A stretch of 64,000 nucleotides of DNA, taken from the NCBI GenBank assembly GCA_964432275.1, contig CAYSMH010000003.1:6718-70717 (forward strand), written 5' to 3'. This document shows, in pieces, positions 3,909 through 33,196 of the stretch (the stretch's first letter is position 1; each line of letters begins with the position of its first letter). The notes under the pieces are model-generated. The model saw nothing but the letters and a program-made list of their open reading frames with translations, did not search any database and was not told where the DNA came from. A program made the translations under genes and the position numbers. Origin of the DNA: an uncultured Candidatus Saccharibacteria bacterium (GTDB lineage: Bacteria > Patescibacteriota > Minisyncoccia > Phycocordibacterales > UBA9973).

Positions 3909-6146
3909 ATGGCTGCCACAGAAAAAACTACAAAAAATGTTCGGCGAAGTAATGTATTTTCATACATAAAAACGACACACGATTTGCTCCAGCACAGAGA
4001 GTTATTTCAAAAAGTTTTAGCCATACTGGGCGATTTGAAATCTATTCATCCAAAGCATACCTATACCTATCCCACAGAGGAACGAAACGATGATCTGGTC
4101 CAGCTTTTAATCGATCTCAAAATCGCCTCATACGATTGGGAAGAAATGGAGAAGCAAACGCACCGCGCGGTCGGAAATCGAATAATCGAGTTCCGTTTTG
4201 ACGGGAGTAAAGTCATTGAACTTGTTGATCGCGTTTCAGGTAAGCATAGCCGTATACGGAAAGAAACTCTTGAACTTATTTCAAAAGATATTGGGGAGAG
4301 GTTTACGCTCAATAAGATTGTCGAGATATTTACCGACATTGGGACACCAGAAAGCATGTTTACTCAAGACACCAAATGGCGGGCTGTTTTTTATATCCTC
4401 TCCTTCTACACCACATCAAAAGATTCGAAAGATATTTTGATGTTCTTGAAAATACTTGAACGGTTCGTTCATCCACTTTCGTTTGGCGGCGATGAAACAA
4501 AAGCCAAAGAAACTGAAGAAAAATATAATAAATGGCTCAAGTATGACCGATTCGGAATAAAGACCGGCAAAGCGTTCATTGGTCCAACCGAAGAAGAAAT
4601 TGACCTTGGTATGGATGAGTGGACCAATTCGGATGGCGAAAGCTTCGAAACAAGAGGATTGACAATATCACCAGATGATGTCGCTCGATTGTGGGTTTTT
4701 TGGACTCAGGTAGTCTTAATTGTGAGTGCGTATGAAGGCAATCAGGGACTTGACCGCGATGAGCTTGAGAAGCTGTATCTGGAACTCATAGCGAAAGCGG
4801 AGCAATTGATTGATCGGGGCGATCTCGGGGATTTAAAACAATCCTACAAACGACCGTTCAACAGTCTTGTAACTGCCGAGATTGAAGCACGGTCAAAAGG
4901 ATTCAATAGCCCTTATGAACTAGCTGGTATTTTTCTGATTATAGTGGGTCAAATGCAACCAGATGCTACTGAAATTCAAAAAGAACGAGAGGAACATGCC
5001 GATCTGATCAAGCGTGTCGCCTCTGCAACTCGCGCTATTAGTGGAGAAAAAATCAATATTGCAAAATTATCCTACGAGCAAGCTCTTTTCATACTGAAAC
5101 TATATGTGACTTATATCTCGAACATATTTGAAGCGGTCGCAAGTGGAAACGTAAAAATTACTGACAGTGCCCTTAACGCAAAATATATCCTATTTACCGA
5201 CTCTGTTGAGCAAATCCTCAACAGGAATGATTTTGCCAAACTCAAAAAACAACAGCCTGATTATCTACCAGAACATCTCTATATTGGGGCGGATGAAATG
5301 GAAACATGGTTTGAGTATGGTGGGCAACCAGCCATCATGAGCTTTATCGGAGCAATCGAAAGCGCCTGGGTGAGAAGCGGGCAGCAATCATTTCCTATAT
5401 CTCTCGCTCTCAATAATCAACTAACGGAAACAGACGAGATCATTTCTCGGCACAAGAAATATAAGTCAGAAAAATGGAAACAGATCACTAAAAACCTCGA
5501 CGGCATGAAGGATGAGATGTTTGGTGGCAATAACAAAAAGGAGGAACCGAAAACTGAGCCCGATACACCTAAAAAAGTTATTCACGAACACCTCCATCGT
5601 TTCGAGAATAGCATCCAAGAAAAGGATATTGCATTCAACCACACGTTTTTTGAAGGCGACACTGAGGGAACGGTAGTTAAGAACAAAAAGAAGATTGTGC
5701 TTCCAAAGTTTCCTGCAACCCCCTACGAACAGATTTCGATCCGCTTTCTAACTGATCAAGATGTCCTAATCACAACCCCCAAGAAACAGGTTAGCTCAAA
5801 CTATGAAGCTCTTGGGTTTTCAAATGACAAAGAGAAGAAGCCTAACACTGCATGGGTACTCTTATTACTTCTGGCAAAGAATGGTGGCGAAATCAAAACA
5901 TCAAAGCCTATTCCTGATACGTTACGCCAACAGAAGCGCCAAATCTCTGATCAATTTAAGCTCATATTTAGAAACTCGCAGGACCCGTTTGAGGATTTTT
6001 CTGACACAAATTCTTATCGCTTAAAAATCAAGCTCGAAGTTGTTGGCAAAGATGAAGCCCCTGATCCGCTCGGTACCCAAGAATACCTCGATGAAACCAT
6101 GACCGAAGGAGCAGAAAACTACGGTCGTGATTTCACGCAATTTTAA
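3909..6146 (+). CDS. Large orphan hypothetical protein (745 aa), island-1 cargo
   Basis: Long uninterrupted ORF, Lys/Glu-rich, no recognisable catalytic motifs, followed by a terminator. Confidence 0.6.
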   Translation: MAATEKTTKNVRRSNVFSYIKTTHDLLQHRELFQKVLAILGDLKSIHPKHTYTYPTEERNDDLVQLLIDLKIASYDWEEMEKQTHRAVGNRIIEFRFDGSKVIELVDRVSGKHSRIRKETLELISKDIGERFTLNKIVEIFTDIGTPESMFTQDTKWRAVFYILSFYTTSKDSKDILMFLKILERFVHPLSFGGDETKAKETEEKYNKWLKYDRFGIKTGKAFIGPTEEEIDLGMDEWTNSDGESFETRGLTISPDDVARLWVFWTQVVLIVSAYEGNQGLDRDELEKLYLELIAKAEQLIDRGDLGDLKQSYKRPFNSLVTAEIEARSKGFNSPYELAGIFLIIVGQMQPDATEIQKEREEHADLIKRVASATRAISGEKINIAKLSYEQALFILKLYVTYISNIFEAVASGNVKITDSALNAKYILFTDSVEQILNRNDFAKLKKQQPDYLPEHLYIGADEMETWFEYGGQPAIMSFIGAIESAWVRSGQQSFPISLALNNQLTETDEIISRHKKYKSEKWKQITKNLDGMKDEMFGGNNKKEEPKTEPDTPKKVIHEHLHRFENSIQEKDIAFNHTFFEGDTEGTVVKNKKKIVLPKFPATPYEQISIRFLTDQDVLITTPKKQVSSNYEALGFSNDKEKKPNTAWVLLLLLAKNGGEIKTSKPIPDTLRQQKRQISDQFKLIFRNSQDPFEDFSDTNSYRLKIKLEVVGKDEAPDPLGTQEYLDETMTEGAENYGRDFTQF

Positions 6147-21139: not shown

Positions 21140-21213
21140 TGCGGAATCGTCTAATGGTAGGACGCATCCCTCTGGAGGATGTTATCTTGGTTCGAGTCCA
21201 GGTTCCGCAGCCA
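21140..21213 (+). tRNA. tRNA-Gln (anticodon CTG), U1-A72, 3-bp D-stem, CCA encoded
   Basis: Acceptor TGCGGAA/TTCCGCA, anticodon stem CATCC/GGATG with loop CTCTGGA, T-arm CTTGG-TTCGAGT-CCAGG, discriminator G plus CCA. The U1-A72 pair and short D-stem are typical of tRNA-Gln. Confidence 0.8.
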
Positions 21214-21360
21214 TTGACAGATAGCACGAGACGTGTTGAAATAACGATTCTCGAGCTAGCTCAATATACTATACTGAAATTGCTTACCCGCTGAGTGCGA
21301 TAACCAGAACAAAAGACATCTAATTTTAGGTGTCTTTTGTATTTACGATATCTCATCATT

Positions 21361-26958: not shown

Positions 26959-28281
26959 CTAATTACTTAAATATATTTTCTTGTTATTCAGAAATATCTT
27001 CCCTTGCAGGTTGTTGAATATCTCTCGCTTCTCAAATATTGTTCCTTCTTTTAATATAAACTTTGCGTAGTTACGAACGTCGACATCTTCAATTTGTATA
27101 TCGTCTTTAATACCCAAAATGCTACGTTGGAATTTCTTAATTCTCGTTATTTCATCATTAATTTTATCTCTCATACCGACTTTGTTTAAATTCACCTTAT
27201 CAAGAAGGGTAGCAAATTGCTTAATCAAATCCTCTTCATTTAGATACCCACCTTTGCAGTTCCTATCTTTCGACCTCGTACAGCCATAGTACACATGTCG
27301 ATTTACTGTTCCATTCTTAAGCTTTTTAAATTTCTCATCTGCGCAAATTCCTGAATCACATAATCCACATATCATGAGCTTGGTGAATGCAAACTCTTTG
27401 TTTTCAACTCTTAGTACCTGACTTTTCACTTGTGCTTGTACTGCGTCATATAGTTCTTTTGTTATCAGTGCTTCATGTTTTCCTTGATACCAGTTACCGC
27501 TTTTAAGAGGATATTCAAATACTCCATAATAGAATGGATTTTCTAATATGCGATAGATATTTCCTAAACTTATATTCTTGTTTCCTTGTAATGTCTTGAA
27601 GTTCAAATCAAACTTTAACCAGTGGTGCAGCTTTCTTCCAGTCCATTTTTCATATGCAACTTTCTCAAACATCTTCTTTACAATTGGTCCTCGGTCTGGA
27701 TCAATGAGGGTCTCACACTTTCGATCCATTCGCTTTTCTTTCAAGTATCCTGTTGGAGCAGGGGCAGGCCATAATCCCATTTCAACTCGTGTTTTCAGTC
27801 CACGCTTTACATTTATACTTTTATTATCATTCTCAAGCTTTGCTTGCGAACAAAGAATCATCAGGAGGAATTTCTCGTTAGGGGAGTTACGAAACTGCTG
27901 CCCATACGTTCGTATTTCAATCAGCTTTTTCTCATCCATTAAATCAACTACTGATCCTAAATCTCCCGCATTTCTACTCAATCTATCAGGTGCCCAAGTT
28001 AATATGCCTGTATATCTTCCAGATCTGATGTCGCTCAGTAATTCTTTAAATACTGGTCGTTGACCAGAGTCTTTCGCAGAATGAGCCTCTCTCCGAACGT
28101 CTATTATTTCCAACCCATCTCGCTCTGCAATGGCCATCATTTCTTTTACTTGAGAATCAATGGAGAGTGCTTGTTTTTCATCTGATTCAGTTGATTTTCG
28201 AGCATAGAGGCAGTACTTCACCTTTTCTGCTGCTATAAGAGCAGGGAAGCCCGTTTGGGCTGTTTTAGCCAGTATTTCCAT
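26959..28281 (-). CDS. Large serine recombinase (paralog of the one in island 1)
   Basis: YARKS catalytic motif, DRLSRN, recombinase domain and Cys cluster CGLCDSG...YYGCTRS. It is collinear with the 8772..10424 protein. Confidence 0.85.
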   Translation of the reverse strand: MEILAKTAQTGFPALIAAEKVKYCLYARKSTESDEKQALSIDSQVKEMMAIAERDGLEIIDVRREAHSAKDSGQRPVFKELLSDIRSGRYTGILTWAPDRLSRNAGDLGSVVDLMDEKKLIEIRTYGQQFRNSPNEKFLLMILCSQAKLENDNKSINVKRGLKTRVEMGLWPAPAPTGYLKEKRMDRKCETLIDPDRGPIVKKMFEKVAYEKWTGRKLHHWLKFDLNFKTLQGNKNISLGNIYRILENPFYYGVFEYPLKSGNWYQGKHEALITKELYDAVQAQVKSQVLRVENKEFAFTKLMICGLCDSGICADEKFKKLKNGTVNRHVYYGCTRSKDRNCKGGYLNEEDLIKQFATLLDKVNLNKVGMRDKINDEITRIKKFQRSILGIKDDIQIEDVDVRNYAKFILKEGTIFEKREIFNNLQGKIFLNNKKIYLSN

Positions 28282-28403
28282 ATCTATATTAATGTCAGAC
28301 CAGTTGCGGAAGTAAAGCTAGACCATTACTCGGCATCACTTTACAAAATCTGTAAAGCATGCTATAATACGACTAATAAGTTCATTGTAATTTAGCTTGC
28401 GAA

Positions 28404-28453
28404 TGGTCATAGCTACGAGGTTCTGATTTCTCGGAATTTCATAGCTATGACCA
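28404..28453. repeat. Inverted repeat TGGTCATAGCTA-N26-TAGCTATGACCA, candidate serine-recombinase att site
   Basis: Perfect 12-bp arms with a 26-bp spacer, ~120 bp upstream of the recombinase start. Confidence 0.4.
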
Positions 28454-28505
28454 CGAATTGGTTGTAGTTCTGTCCCGGAGTAGGGAAAATTAAAACCATA
28501 ACGAC

Positions 28506-29141
28506 ATGGAAAAAACATTTGCATCTGCGGATCTCACCGCAGGACAACTGAACGCTATTGTAAAAAAGCTTGGCGGTCATGAAGGTGCTTTGAAATTTTT
28601 ACGCGGCGAAACTTCGGTTTCCGAACCTGAAAAAAGCTGGCGTGAGCATGACGGAGTGATTTACTTCACCGTCACTTCCGATGGTGCCACCGGTGCCGAA
28701 TGGATTGCCCGTCTTGAGAAAGGTGGATACCGCGTTGGCGATTACGCCAAGAGCGTTCTACTTTCAAAAGATTTTAAACCTACAAACGGTGTTACAACCG
28801 AAGTTGGAGTGTTGAAGGGTATGCTGTTTGAAGACAATCAACGCATTACCAAAAACATCCGTAAAAATGCCGAAGATCGCAAACTGGAAACACCAAATGC
28901 AGAGATAGCTTGCCTTATCCGTGAAAAATTCACTGATGAAGACATCGAAGCGATGGGTTTATGGTGGATCGTTGCAATGCATGAACCGATCAATGATTCC
29001 GGTGGTGATCCGCGCTTGCTCCTTGCGGACCGTAGTGACGATGGGCGTTGGCTGAACTCGGCGTATGGCATGCCTGACTTCAGGTGGATCCGTGGGAGCG
29101 GGTTCGCGTTTGCTGTTTCGCAAGTTAGTTCTCAAAACTAA
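28506..29141 (+). CDS. DGR target protein (variable C-terminal CLec/FGE-like segment containing the VR)
   Basis: The 3' 128 bp is the VR copy of a downstream TR. The differing codons correspond to AAC/AAT/A-containing codons in the TR. Confidence 0.7.
   Translation: MEKTFASADLTAGQLNAIVKKLGGHEGALKFLRGETSVSEPEKSWREHDGVIYFTVTSDGATGAEWIARLEKGGYRVGDYAKSVLLSKDFKPTNGVTTEVGVLKGMLFEDNQRITKNIRKNAEDRKLETPNAEIACLIREKFTDEDIEAMGLWWIVAMHEPINDSGGDPRLLLADRSDDGRWLNSAYGMPDFRWIRGSGFAFAVSQVSSQN
28996..29123 (+). repeat. DGR variable repeat (VR)
   Basis: 128-bp direct repeat of 29483..29610 at an offset of 487 bp. There are 16 mismatches, and 15 of them are positions where the downstream copy has A. Confidence 0.75.
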
Positions 29142-29482
29142 GACGCTGATCACTTCAGCTCTTTGAATTTAGTCCTTAGCCCTTGTTCCGCTACCATATT
29201 TCTGGTTTGGAATGAGGGCTAATTTTTTTTGCATAAACTTGTATAATGAGTACGGTAATAGGTGTAGTGCGGACGGCAAAAAGATTTATTCTGGGCTTTC
29301 CGCTACCGAATCCAGTATCCATACATCGAGAGTACTTAAGGTCACGGCTTCAGGTAGAGTGGTGTATGCAGAAACTTCAAAAAATGAAGATACTTGGTGT
29401 GAGAGATTAGGGCATTACGATGCCAGATACAATACAACCCTGAGAGTATTCGAGGGGTGGTGATACAGAAGATCTCTTGCAC

Positions 29483-29610
29483 ATTCCGATGGTGATCCGA
29501 ACTTGCTCAACGCGAACCGTAATGACGATGGGCGTTGGCTGAACACGGCGTATGACAAGCCTGACAACAGGTGGAACCGTGGGAACGGGTTCGCGTTTGC
29601 TGTTTCGCAA
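29483..29610 (+). repeat. DGR template repeat (TR), non-coding, adenine-rich AAC codon pattern
   Basis: Same repeat. Adenines occupy the variable positions. The shared 3' block GGGTTCGCGTTTGCTGTTTCGCAA is invariant (IMH-like), followed by a CTCTCCCA/TGGGAGAG hairpin plus T-run. Confidence 0.75.
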
Positions 29611-29635
29611 TTCTTTTCATTTTCTCTCCCAATAC

Positions 29636-29881
29636 TTACTGTTTGGGAGAGTTTTGTTTTGTGAGTTGGCCACTCCAACCGCCTAGCATTCTGCCGGCTT
29701 CATCAAGCTTCACCGAAAGTGCAATATATTTTTTATCGTCAATTGATTTAGTCTCCCAGAGTACAAGTAGTAGTAAGCGTAGAGTGTCAGCTTTTCTAAT
29801 GGCAAGACGCACATATGGGTGCTTTTCCTCCCGTGAGAGAAAGCTTGCGGCAGAAATTGCTTCTATTATTTCGACAAACAA
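29636..29881 (-). CDS. Avd-like (accessory variability determinant) four-helix-bundle protein, N-terminally short, TTG start
   Basis: The C-terminal segment ...LLLLVLWETKSIDDKKYIALSVKLDEAGRMLGGW parallels the Bordetella phage Avd C-terminus (...LAMLRFWLRFLAG...AEVGRILGSWI), a member of the 23S-IVS four-helix-bundle family. Confidence 0.5.
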   Translation of the reverse strand: MFVEIIEAISAASFLSREEKHPYVRLAIRKADTLRLLLLVLWETKSIDDKKYIALSVKLDEAGRMLGGWSGQLTKQNSPKQ

Positions 29882-30145
29882 AGTATCGATGCGTTGACCA
29901 AGAGAAACGGGGAGATGATTTCACGGTCACAAGCTCCGCACTTTAGTGCGCAAACAAAACTTCCGCTCTTTAGGCGGAAGTAGTTTATTTAAAAGTCCGT
30001 CAGCAGCAGCTACCATTACTGGAAGATCAATAAATGGATGGACTGCATGGAAAGATGAGCATGGAATAACGTTAAATGATAATTTAAGACAATAAATATA
30101 GAAATCAAAATTTTACACACAGCTTATCAGGGCTATAATAGAATT

Positions 30146-30535
30146 ATGGATAGGATATCTTCAAAAATAGCACCAATAGCCGGTATTATCATTCTGGTAA
30201 GCTATATATGGATTGCTGTATTTGGACTTCTCCAGACTGCTCATGCTTCAAATAGTCATACGCATTCAGCCTGTCCTTATATGGTTGGCCAGCATTCTAT
30301 TTGCTCCATGGATGTGTTTGACCATCTTCAAGCATGGCAGGCATTCTCTACAGTTACTGTGCCCGTATTAGAGATACTTGCTCTTGCAGTACTTTTATTT
30401 GTCACTGCATGGTTTTTACACGCACCACCACCCCTGTTAGGGCATTTATATACTAAACAAACTTATAGCCAAATACGTGAACCGTTATATCGGCGACTAT
30501 TTTCGCGTGGTATTCTTAACCCAAAAGCACCCTAA
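30146..30535 (+). CDS. Small two-TM membrane protein with Cys/His motif (CPYMVGQHSICSMD)
   Basis: ORF with hydrophobic helices inside a metal-resistance context. Confidence 0.35.
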   Translation: MDRISSKIAPIAGIIILVSYIWIAVFGLLQTAHASNSHTHSACPYMVGQHSICSMDVFDHLQAWQAFSTVTVPVLEILALAVLLFVTAWFLHAPPPLLGHLYTKQTYSQIREPLYRRLFSRGILNPKAP

Positions 30536-30581
30536 TAAGCACTCTGTAATATTTATTATCATTTAACTTAAATTAAAACTT

Positions 30582-30995
30582 ATGGAACAAAATAAAATAG
30601 TAACAGGAGTAATCTGTTTGGTTGCGGGGGTACTTCTCGGGGCAGTTATATTCGGTGGCAAAGGTGATACTGCTCCTGCAATAAGTAATACTAATAATAC
30701 TCATCATGTCATGCCGGATGGTTCTAATATGAACAACAGCATGGATATGGCCTCTATGATGGCAGGTATGAACGCAAATCTTTCAGGAAAGACTGGAGAT
30801 ACGTTTGATCAAGCATTTATCACCGAAATGATTATGCACCACGAAGGGGCAGTAGAGATGGCAGAGCTAGCTTTAACGAATGCTAAACATGCAGAAATTA
30901 AAACACTGGCTAATGCAATTATTTCTGCCCAGAATAGTGAAATTGCTCAGATGAAAACATGGCTTAAAAACTGGTATAAGGTAGAAACACAATAA
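30582..30995 (+). CDS. DUF305 protein with Met/His-rich putative Cu(I)-binding segment
   Basis: DQAFITEMIMHHEGAVEMA motif, preceded by HHVMPDGSNMNNSMDMASMMAGMN. Confidence 0.6.
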   Translation: MEQNKIVTGVICLVAGVLLGAVIFGGKGDTAPAISNTNNTHHVMPDGSNMNNSMDMASMMAGMNANLSGKTGDTFDQAFITEMIMHHEGAVEMAELALTNAKHAEIKTLANAIISAQNSEIAQMKTWLKNWYKVETQ

Positions 30996-30996
30996 T

Positions 30997-31494
30997 ATGA
31001 AAAAAATAAGTTTCGGAAGTTGGATAGGGATACTACTTATAGTATTAATTGGATTTGCTATATGGTGGACACCAAATGCTAAAGAAGCAAAGATTGAGCA
31101 ACAAAAAGAACAGACCAGTCGCGAAGTTGCGTTATTGTGTACAACAGATATGGCAACGCAATATCATATTCATCCCGAGTTACAAATTCTAATAAATGGA
31201 GAAAATAACTCTATTCCAAAAAATCTCGGCATTAAATCAAATTGTATGACCTCAATTCATACACATGATGAAATAGGAGTAATACATGTTGAAGCCCCAG
31301 TACAAAAAGACTTCACACTCGGAGACTTCTTTGCGGTATGGCAAAAGGATTTCTCAAAAAGTAAGATTCTTGATTACGTAGTAGATGAACAACATGAGAT
31401 TTCTGTTACAATTAATGGCGTACCGGTTGATACGTTCGAAAATACTATTCTTGGTGACAAAGATAAAATAGTCATCTCATATAAAACAAAATAA
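30997..31494 (+). CDS. Secreted His-rich hypothetical protein (possible metal-binding partner of the NirK-like protein)
   Basis: Signal anchor, HIHPE and IHTHDEIGVIHVE motifs. The stop overlaps the next gene start. Confidence 0.4.
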   Translation: MKKISFGSWIGILLIVLIGFAIWWTPNAKEAKIEQQKEQTSREVALLCTTDMATQYHIHPELQILINGENNSIPKNLGIKSNCMTSIHTHDEIGVIHVEAPVQKDFTLGDFFAVWQKDFSKSKILDYVVDEQHEISVTINGVPVDTFENTILGDKDKIVISYKTK

Positions 31495-31495
31495 T

Positions 31496-32731
31496 ATGTT
31501 TACTTATATACTATTTGAAATAATCGCAGCCCTCGTTGGAGGTATTGCCATTATTATAATTCTCGTACAATTGTATAAGAATAAGAGTGTAAAAAATTTC
31601 TTCAAAAAGAAAGTCGTTATAATACCCCTAGTATTGTTGGTCACTGCTTTCTTTGTTGGACTACTTGCGAACCGAACGTATCCACCACATTTTGCAATGC
31701 CAGCATGGATGAATTCTCATGCACCAGGCGGCGTTCCAGCATCAATTCCATTCCGTAATATCGTTGAATTCTTCACCTATAAAAACCGATTTGAAAAAGT
31801 GGCTGATATAGGTGCAGATCCGAATGCGGTCCCAGAACTTGCAGAGCCAGATCATGATAATGTGGTGAAGATAAGTTTAACGGCAAAAGAAGTCATCTCA
31901 GAAATTGCTCCAGGTATTTACTATAACTATTGGACATTCAATAAGCAGGTTCCAGGTCCGATGCTTCGGGTTAGAGAAGGGGATACTGTCGAGCTTACAC
32001 TCAGCAATGACCCGAGCAGTTTGCATGATCATAGTATTGATCTGCATGCAGTAAATGGTCCGGGCGGAGGGGCGGAATTCACACATCTTAAACCGGGAGA
32101 AACAAAAACCTTCCGATGGAAAGCTATGAATCCTGGATTGTATATTTATCACTGTGCGATGCCGAATGTGAGCACGCACAATTCTCATGGACAATATGGA
32201 CTCATATTGGTTGAACCAAAAGAAGGACTGCCTCCTGTTGATAAAGAGTTCTATGTGGTGCAAGGAGAACTTTACACAAATGGGGAAATTGGAAAGAAAG
32301 GTCTTGTCCCTTTTAATTCAAAAGATCTCATTGCGGGAAACCCAAATTACGTACTATTCAACGGTCGTGTAGAGTCTACACCTCGTATGGCAGCGGAAGT
32401 TGGTGATAAGGTTAGAATCTATGTTGGAAATGGCGGAGTAAATCTTATCTCATCGTTCCATGTCATAGGTGAAATCTTTGACACTGTCTATCCAGAAGGC
32501 GCAATAGGAAAAGAATCAGCAAAACTCCAGAACGTTCAGACAACAGCTGTTCTTCCTGGTGGTTCATCAATTGTAGAATTCACAGTTGATTATCCTGGCA
32601 AATACCTACTTGTCGATCATGCACTAGCACGATTAAATAAAGGTGCATGGGCAGTACTGGAAGTTACGGGTGAGAAAAACCCTGAAATTATAGAATCGGT
32701 AGGTGATACCAATCACGATCATACTCACTAA
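31496..32731 (+). CDS. Copper-containing nitrite reductase (NirK)-like two-domain multicopper oxidase, N-terminal two-TM anchor
   Basis: HDHSIDLHAVNGPGGG (NirK H-x4-H type-1/type-2 Cu motif), YHCAMPNVSTH (His-Cys...His) and SSFHVIGEIFD (NirK C-domain signature). Confidence 0.6.
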   Translation: MFTYILFEIIAALVGGIAIIIILVQLYKNKSVKNFFKKKVVIIPLVLLVTAFFVGLLANRTYPPHFAMPAWMNSHAPGGVPASIPFRNIVEFFTYKNRFEKVADIGADPNAVPELAEPDHDNVVKISLTAKEVISEIAPGIYYNYWTFNKQVPGPMLRVREGDTVELTLSNDPSSLHDHSIDLHAVNGPGGGAEFTHLKPGETKTFRWKAMNPGLYIYHCAMPNVSTHNSHGQYGLILVEPKEGLPPVDKEFYVVQGELYTNGEIGKKGLVPFNSKDLIAGNPNYVLFNGRVESTPRMAAEVGDKVRIYVGNGGVNLISSFHVIGEIFDTVYPEGAIGKESAKLQNVQTTAVLPGGSSIVEFTVDYPGKYLLVDHALARLNKGAWAVLEVTGEKNPEIIESVGDTNHDHTH

Positions 32732-33196
32732 TACAAAAACACCAGTCGAAAGCTGGTGTTTTTGTTATGAACTTATTGCTGAGGATGGCGCTCAAGAAAG
32801 TCGGATATCATCGCTTCTTGCTGTTCTATAAACTCAGGTCCATTGTGTTGTTCAAGGTATTTACGTAAGAATCCTACTTCTGCTCGTAAAGCCATTAGTA
32901 CACCTTTATCCTCTCCAAAACGAGTGGTTAATTCTTTTACAAATTCTTGATAAGTCATAATAAGATAATATCACTACTATTTTAAAAGTTACAATAAGGC
33001 GTAATTTAGACAACCCACCCTGTGTCACTTTTGTAACTTTTTAAGGTGCTCGAGACGCGTCGAAATGATATTATAAAATCATTAAAAATAACCTTACAGG
33101 GCAAAGCTAGCCATGGTTCTAGCTCGAGACGGCCAGCAGTTATAAAAATACCGGCTTAGATGAAATAATATACGACTCCAGTCGTCAAACCTATAT

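Follow-up and report, generated by a model that had tools for sequence, protein, structure and literature searches.

A probable relic of a Patescibacteria-type diversity-generating retroelement without reverse transcriptase and with a truncated avd

Introduction

The prototype of diversity-generating retroelements (DGRs) is the element of Bordetella phage BPP-1 (mtd-avd-TR-brt), which is characterized by a target gene whose 3′ end holds a VR deviating from TR by A-to-N substitutions, by a GC-rich conserved 3′ end common to VR and TR (IMH/IMH*), by an Avd-family accessory gene, and by a C-type-lectin fold which bears the variable residues. The locus described here shares the first three of these features, and the fourth is probable for its target protein. 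However, the BPP-1 element is phage-borne and its target is a tail fibre, whereas the present element is cellular, with no IMG/VR relatives, and its target is a small protein of 211 aa. Further differences from BPP-1 are an avd which is inverted and located behind TR, equivalents of IMH and IMH* which are identical over 25 bp, and the absence of a reverse transcriptase (RT) gene.

More closely comparable are the DGRs of CPR genomes, which have been assigned to cellular DGR clade 2 (Roux et al., 2021, PMC8144416) and for which an architecture B3, “TR-(avd)-RT,” has been described (Wu et al., 2018, NAR 46:11, PMC5758913). Order and orientation in B3 elements are the same as in our locus, i.e., target gene with VR first, TR second, and an avd in reverse orientation behind it. 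In both cases the target has no recognizable domain or transmembrane segment, and TR adenines occupy the first two positions of AAC codons. In contrast to B3 elements, in which RT is present and avd is whole, the copy studied here has no RT, and its avd is cut at codon ~42. Because of these two defects, it would have been dropped from curated sets of “putatively functional” CPR DGRs. It resembles decayed DGRs, in which essential components are lost and the VR/TR scar is still readable, but differs from them in that the breakpoint could be mapped to within ~3 bp, that the replacing DNA was partly identified (a mobile copper module), and that the decay appears to be recent. In the following, “the window” denotes the whole stretch of DNA analyzed, which covers 64 kb of a 70.8-kb contig.

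Results

VR/TR Repeat Pair and Adenine Signature

In the initial annotation of this DNA, VR had been placed at 28996–29123 and TR at 29483–29610, 487 bp apart. An ungapped alignment over 128 bp agrees with this placement (both repeats on the plus strand, 88% identity), and no further copies of the repeat were found in the 64-kb window. The annotation had counted 16 mismatches, 15 of them at TR adenines. Our recount arrives at 15 mismatches, 14 of which have A in TR and G, C or T in VR, and the annotation's own list of coordinates also holds 14 plus one. The adenine bias as such stands: when mismatches are tabulated by TR base, the 14 of 15 at A correspond to P = 1.1e-9 (Fisher/hypergeometric) or P = 1.8e-8 (binomial). 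The single exception, a C at 29511 in TR and a T at 29024 in VR, falls on position 3 of a codon in which positions 1 and 2 are substituted, too. TR contains 30 adenines in 128 nt, 14 of which are substituted in VR, in line with the annotated proportion of about half. Read in the frame of the target gene (28506–29141), 29 of the 30 adenines occupy codon position 1 or 2, and the same is true for all 14 adenine substitutions. AAC or AAT codons, which had been named as the main sites of change, indeed hold 10 of the 14.

At their 3′ ends, VR (29099–29123, plus strand) and TR (29586–29610) are identical over 25 bp, and not over the 24 bp originally given. This IMH-like segment has a GC-rich start, CGGGTTCGCG, codes for the family-invariant peptide GFAFAVSQ and may act as IMH in homing.

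Target Gene and Protein Family

VR spans codons 164–206 of a 211-codon ORF on the plus strand (28506–29141), the DGR target gene. Its product consists of a conserved N-terminal scaffold of ~163 aa and a variable C-terminal part of ~45 aa. A promoter-like site (TTTACA-17-TATAAT with extended TG, 11/12 matches, consensus scan alone) is located at 28340–28368 on the same strand, and L087, the closest intact relative, is homologous from 28360 onwards, inside this site. More than 1,899 homologs of the target protein were found at 70–87% identity, and all named ones originate from Patescibacteria/CPR genomes. In an alignment of 29 homologs, hypervariability is found precisely in the columns whose codons carry TR adenines, and the ~163-residue scaffold is strongly conserved.

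No Pfam or NCBIfam family matched the 211-aa protein, a comparison with solved structures gave no sequence match, and neither a recognizable domain nor a transmembrane segment was found. The protein probably adopts a C-type-lectin fold. As relatives of the target were not found in IMG/VR viral contigs, a phage origin of the element was rejected.

Intact Relatives and Family Layout

To describe the family, we used one genome per species and scored each of 80 loci for TR, avd and RT. A complete cassette was present at 26 loci; five retained TR with RT absent or partial (L008, L020, L026, L044, L072), and 30 retained the target gene only. Seven further loci were ambiguous, and at 12 the downstream sequence was too short. 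About 1 in 12 of the assessable loci retains TR without RT, and about half retain only the target gene; decay is common in this target family.

In complete cassettes, the target gene and its VR are separated by ~330 bp from a TR of equal orientation; a reversed avd (~130 aa) follows TR directly, and RT (~330–340 aa) comes last, oriented like TR. As far as gene order and orientation go, this layout is the published architecture B3. Mismatches between VR and TR in complete loci are mostly at adenines, and in several loci exclusively so, e.g., 15/15 in L007, L012 and L019 and 21/21 in L013, L043 and L077. The family RTs bear LGNLTSQ (L007, L100), a form of the motif [ILV]GxxxSQ typical of DGR RTs. 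The nearest intact relatives, L087–L090 (protein P0005), have 86% amino acid identity in the target protein and 81% nucleotide identity over window positions 28360–29905. They encode a 130-aa Avd above the Pfam cut-off and an RT (RVT_1, E = 1e-24 in L087). In comparison with L087, no segment of the cassette is better conserved than TR (92% identity).

On sequence grounds, the VR/TR pair is a genuine DGR product, since the adenine bias coincides with hypervariability of the family at the same codons and since intact relatives carry avd and a DGR-type RT.

Missing Reverse Transcriptase and Truncated avd

Neither an RT nor an RT remnant was detected across the 64-kb window. A tblastn search with the family RT (L087) against all 64 kb gave a best E-value of 0.6, and a six-frame search of the window for [YF]xDD returned only two matches, both located in a DEAD-box helicase gene.

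The Avd protein forms a four-helix bundle, binds RT and is needed for cDNA synthesis. At our locus, tblastn, alignment and profile matches consistently identify an avd pseudogene remnant on the minus strand (29636–29905), comprising codons 42–130 of 130. With the Avd of L089 as query, residues 42–130 align at 94% identity to 29905–29639. The missing N-terminus amounts to ~41 codons according to tblastn and to ~50 residues in the alignment to full-length Avd proteins. In-frame stops are found directly upstream of the remnant and the native start is lost; the 81-aa ORF previously recorded here is a mechanical one, starting at a TTG at 29881 (minus strand). This ORF had been said to resemble the C-terminal half of Avd, for which an HMM search had been suggested. 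We obtained matches to PF22296 (bAvd; E = 2e-4, 22 bits vs. a cut-off of 40, profile positions 65–104 of 107) and to NF033474 (DivGenRetAVD; E = 3e-8, 34 bits vs. a cut-off of 80, positions 39–102 of 104), both confined to the C-terminal 60% of the models. The full-length Avd of L089, in comparison, clears the PF22296 cut-off (43.4 vs. 40). The annotated Avd identity of the ORF is supported, but the consequence of its truncation and the missing RT were overlooked: a protein from which helix 1 and a portion of helix 2 are missing is not expected to fold. Compared with L087, codon differences in the remnant are 44 synonymous and five conservative non-synonymous ones, and no frameshift or stop is present.

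Homology to all intact cassettes ends at 29906–29908, inside avd codon ~42. The end points of blastn alignments are 29904–29906 in 12 loci, 29914 in L035 and 29905 in L100, the break is also seen in a multiple alignment, and the breakpoint is located to within ~3 bp. We also searched for a near-identical intact ancestor, probing metagenome contigs for an exact 41-nt piece of avd; only the intact locus L100, which is 80% identical, was found.

Of the original claim of a DGR cassette, the DGR origin holds, given the adenine bias and the intact relatives. However, the locus is not a working cassette, because RT is absent from the 64-kb window and avd is without its first ~41 codons.

DNA Beside the Truncated Cassette

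The breakpoint is followed by a filler of 77 bp (29907–29983), which showed homology neither to the DGR relatives nor to the copper module as found elsewhere. It contains two small hairpins, one of which (29959–29981) is terminator-like on both strands. Next to it lies a copper-resistance module of 3.17 kb on the plus strand (29984–33150), which has sharp ends at 29984 and 33150 and is 98.9–99.2% identical to L095–L099, i.e., to copies from other samples with unrelated flanks. The gene order of the module is DUF4357 fragment, 129-aa ORF, DUF305 protein, 165-aa ORF, multicopper-oxidase/NirK-like protein and 61-aa ORF. The fragment at its left end is the C-terminal part of a DUF4357 gene (29982–30095; PF14267, E = 6e-12, profile positions 23–54 of 54 only). 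In three of the copies L095–L099, the copper block sits ~70 bp downstream of a tRNA-Gln(ttg). In the window, a copy of the motif GCNCGAGAYGYGT follows tRNA-Gln (21224) and a second one is located at 33048; two matches were also obtained in 20 of 100 shuffles. As markers of island borders, the two motif copies are suggestive only.

On the other side, a gene for a large serine recombinase (26959–28281, minus strand; Pfam Resolvase, Recombinase and Zn_ribbon_recom) is oriented divergently from the target gene. The protein is similar to CcrB and XisF. Adjacency of recombinase and target gene was seen in the window and in L016, with a distant recombinase in L054, and is absent in intact relatives such as L087. 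We treat the recombinase gene as a neighbor; its being part of the element is uncertain.

Spacer, Hairpins and Base Composition

VR and TR are separated by a non-coding spacer (29142–29482), the length of which, ~330 bp, is kept in the family. In comparison with L087 it is the least conserved segment of the cassette (75% identity with indels). A long hairpin with a U8 run is found 3′ of the target stop codon (29176–29231, plus strand) and is terminator-like (RNA fold z = −5.7 vs. shuffles). An 83-aa ORF in the spacer (29212–29463) was rejected as a gene; its weak match to BT_3044-like_C (E = 0.009) is below the cut-off, and the ORF is uncalled in relatives. The sole match in an Rfam scan of 26–32 kb was RT-7 RNA at 29326–29379 (19 bits vs. 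a gathering score of 117, E = 0.25). We treated this match as a chance hit since it did not recur in relatives, being absent in five intact ones (E up to 5) and in twelve loci at the gathering threshold.

A second hairpin is located between the 3′ end of TR (plus strand) and the stop codon of avd (minus strand). The hairpin plus T-run which had been noted behind TR was recovered here (29624–29661), with a stem at 29624–29651, the T-run UUUUGUUUUG and a fold z of −5.2 vs. shuffles. In a multiple alignment, its CTCTCC/GGAGAG stem and TTTTGTTTTG tail are kept in L087, L018, L012 and L008, and the structure looks like a bidirectional terminator. An intact TR, terminator and IMH-like end would also fit continued use. 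The GC content is 45–49% over 28500–29700 vs. 33–42% in the flanks, so that the cassette is GC-richer than its surroundings, as had been described.

VR Variation and Alternative Explanations

The VR/TR pair could still be diversified if a complete DGR of the same family, located elsewhere in the genome, supplied RT and Avd in trans. Either the local TR transcript or the TR of the remote element would then be copied into VR, and the locus would be an active, non-autonomous satellite. We consider this unlikely. The undamaged state of TR, terminator hairpin and IMH-like end is compatible with it, several target genes per genome do occur in the family, and our view covers 64 kb of the 70.8-kb contig, which is itself part of a genome. 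Cases from the family also point in this direction: in assembly VMFZ01, 17 of 22 mismatches between the orphan L065 and the TR of L039 are at adenines, and 17 of 31 are for the pair L032/L024. However, the truncated avd at the locus itself argues for a damaged self-contained cassette rather than a designed remote target.

The variation data likewise speak against ongoing diversification. At the DNA level, VR does not differ among five sequencing runs (L001–L005), the contigs of which are 100% identical throughout and may represent one clone resampled. Among 15 billion proteins, VR variants of this scaffold were not encountered; an exact-sequence look-up is by its nature restricted to identical proteins. 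At 90% identity, the cluster of the target protein has one member. The initial annotation had made its reading depend on VR polymorphism; at the level of assemblies, there is none. Intact relatives, in contrast, readily yield VR variants. P0005, an intact relative, and P0002 share all 163 residues of the scaffold but are different at 13 residues of VR, and the P0007 cluster has five variable columns in the scaffold vs. 19 in VR. The RT-less orphan P0004 (L086), which has no TR, avd or RT behind the gene, is almost invariant in VR. Being assembly-level evidence, which is weaker than read-level evidence, the identity of VR across assemblies leans towards inactivity of the locus.

That the missing RT is an assembly artefact, caused by a chimeric join or a collapsed repeat, deserves very little credence. 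The sequence is metagenome-derived, and short Logan contigs break in the VR–TR spacer (L002 and L003 end at 29385, L091 starts at 29369). Nevertheless, the junction at 29906–29984 is crossed at 100% identity in five independent assemblies (L001, SRR25168019; L091, SRR12762275; L092, SRR17409987; L093, ERR14888783; L094, SRR12762323), and their concordance leads us to exclude an assembly chimera. Least credible, and excluded because of the mismatch spectrum and the intact homologous cassettes, is a plain duplication of the 3′ end of the gene followed by drift without any retroelement, which would account for two 128-bp copies 487 bp apart with no RT nearby, but not for the concentration of 14 out of 15 differences at adenines of a single copy (P = 1e-9), nor for an adjacent ORF which is Avd and relatives of the same layout which carry a DGR RT.

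Discussion

We propose, with a probability of roughly 80%, that the locus is the remnant of a Patescibacteria-type DGR, the RT and half of the avd of which were removed by a rearrangement, and that it is now frozen and non-autonomous. According to established DGR biology, TR would have been transcribed in the intact stage, and a complex of RT and Avd would have copied it, inserting random nucleotides opposite adenines. The resulting cDNA would have replaced VR and thereby rewritten ~14 codons at the C-terminus of the 211-aa target protein. Sequence comparison shows that a rearrangement then took away the RT gene and the first ~41 avd codons. Their place is now occupied by the 77-bp filler and by the copper-resistance module of 3.17 kb, which was acquired horizontally. 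The sharp break in avd with mobile copper DNA alongside is the reason why we favor loss of RT and of the avd head in a rearrangement. Left over are the target gene with the VR last written, TR and its terminator in intact form, and an avd pseudogene without its head. In its present state the cassette should be unable to diversify alone, and VR would be frozen because there is neither an RT nor a foldable Avd.

In relation to the split from the L087 lineage, the loss of RT and of the avd head looks recent, because none of the 30 TR adenines has been lost, a single non-adenine position separates VR from TR, and the avd remnant is unshifted with nearly all of its changes being synonymous. As it lacks two defining features of a functional DGR, namely RT and an intact accessory gene, the locus is best classified as a decayed representative of the known CPR B3 type. 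A decayed DGR will not surprise specialists, as over half of the candidate DGRs were discarded as truncated or inactive in a survey (Wu et al., 2018, PMC5758913).

At the level of the family, RT-less TR/VR loci might be kept as working satellites, each consisting of a target gene and a TR with a terminator of its own, for which RT and Avd would be provided from another place in the small genome. We regard this as quite improbable, and the present evidence leans against it. If it were true, the many “decayed” copies and orphans of Patescibacteria would not be junk but the parts of a distributed DGR network acting in trans, which would extend the view of DGR organization in reduced genomes.

The locus also serves as a caution and a calibration point: an adenine-biased VR/TR pair of textbook quality next to an Avd-like ORF is no proof of an active DGR. 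Relics of this kind keep the last variant written into the protein and could serve to date the loss of a DGR or to study whether selection acts on frozen variants.

Genomic surroundings of the probable DGR relic

To the right of the DGR relic lies a 3.17 kb copper-related module (29984-33150), which comprises the tail of a DUF4357 gene, a 129-aa ORF, a DUF305 protein, a 165-aa ORF, a multicopper-oxidase/NirK-like protein and a 61-aa ORF. Five contigs from other samples (L095-L099) share this module with 98.9-99.2% identity to the window, whereby its ends are sharp and the flanks differ. In three of them (L096-L098), the module is found approximately 70 bp 3′ of a tRNA-Gln(ttg). It looks like a mobile module which was transferred recently. 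The module is separated from the breakpoint of the DGR relic by a 77-bp filler (29907-29983), which is homologous neither to the DGR relatives nor to what precedes the copper module on its left side in other genomes. Two hairpins are present in the filler, GCACT..AGTGC and ACTTCCGC..GCGGAAGT, the latter being terminator-like on both strands.

The window also contains a tRNA-Gln(ctg) (21140-21213), and the motif GCNCGAGAYGYGT occurs 11 nt past this gene and a second time at 33048, close to the right-hand border of the copper module. Around the two copies (regions 21140-21236 and 33033-33150), about 22 of 28 nt are alike. The segment from 21.2 to 33.15 kb, which holds CopA, DsbD_2/HMA, a cupredoxin, DoxX, a recombinase, the DGR relic and the copper module, may be a single tRNA-associated island; this reading is only suggestive, because two matches to GCNCGAGAYGYGT also arose in 20 of 100 shuffles.

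The recombinase of this segment is a large serine recombinase, CcrB/XisF-like; its gene, on the minus strand (26959-28281), lies upstream of the DGR target and is oriented away from it. The same divergent arrangement was detected in a Nomurabacteria locus (L016, approx. 70% identical), with the recombinase at 4669-5715 (−) upstream of a target gene without TR, avd or RT. No recombinase was found in intact relatives such as L087, the closest one. Its position beside the DGR target may reflect either co-mobilization or coincidence. The leader of the target gene itself carries an inverted repeat (28404-28453; 23 nt, 83% complementary, loop of 4 nt), which is placed after a promoter-like site (28340-28368) and ahead of the start codon, and may form a regulatory hairpin.

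Related loci in other assemblies

Two Logan metagenome contigs matching the DGR locus (L002 and L003), originating from two samples, both end exactly at 29385, and a third (L091), from the same sample as L002 (SRR12762275), starts at 29369. These ends point to an assembly-graph branch within the VR-TR spacer, possibly because the same communities harbour a related DGR.

Orphan second targets were present in the assemblies VMFZ01 (L039/L065) and CAZNDY01 (L024/L032). Their VRs differ from the TR of the respective other locus mainly at adenines, which account for 17 of 22 mismatches in VMFZ01 and for 17 of 31 in CAZNDY01, and the non-adenine differences concentrate in the 3′ IMH-like end. These genes may be remote targets or, alternatively, older relics.

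In other genomes, the cassette is reduced to various degrees: TR and a full avd are kept while RT is gone (L026), TR alone is left (L044, L072), RT persists as fragments (L008, L020), or two ORFs make up a split RT (L013). These six loci represent the same cassette in independent states of decay.
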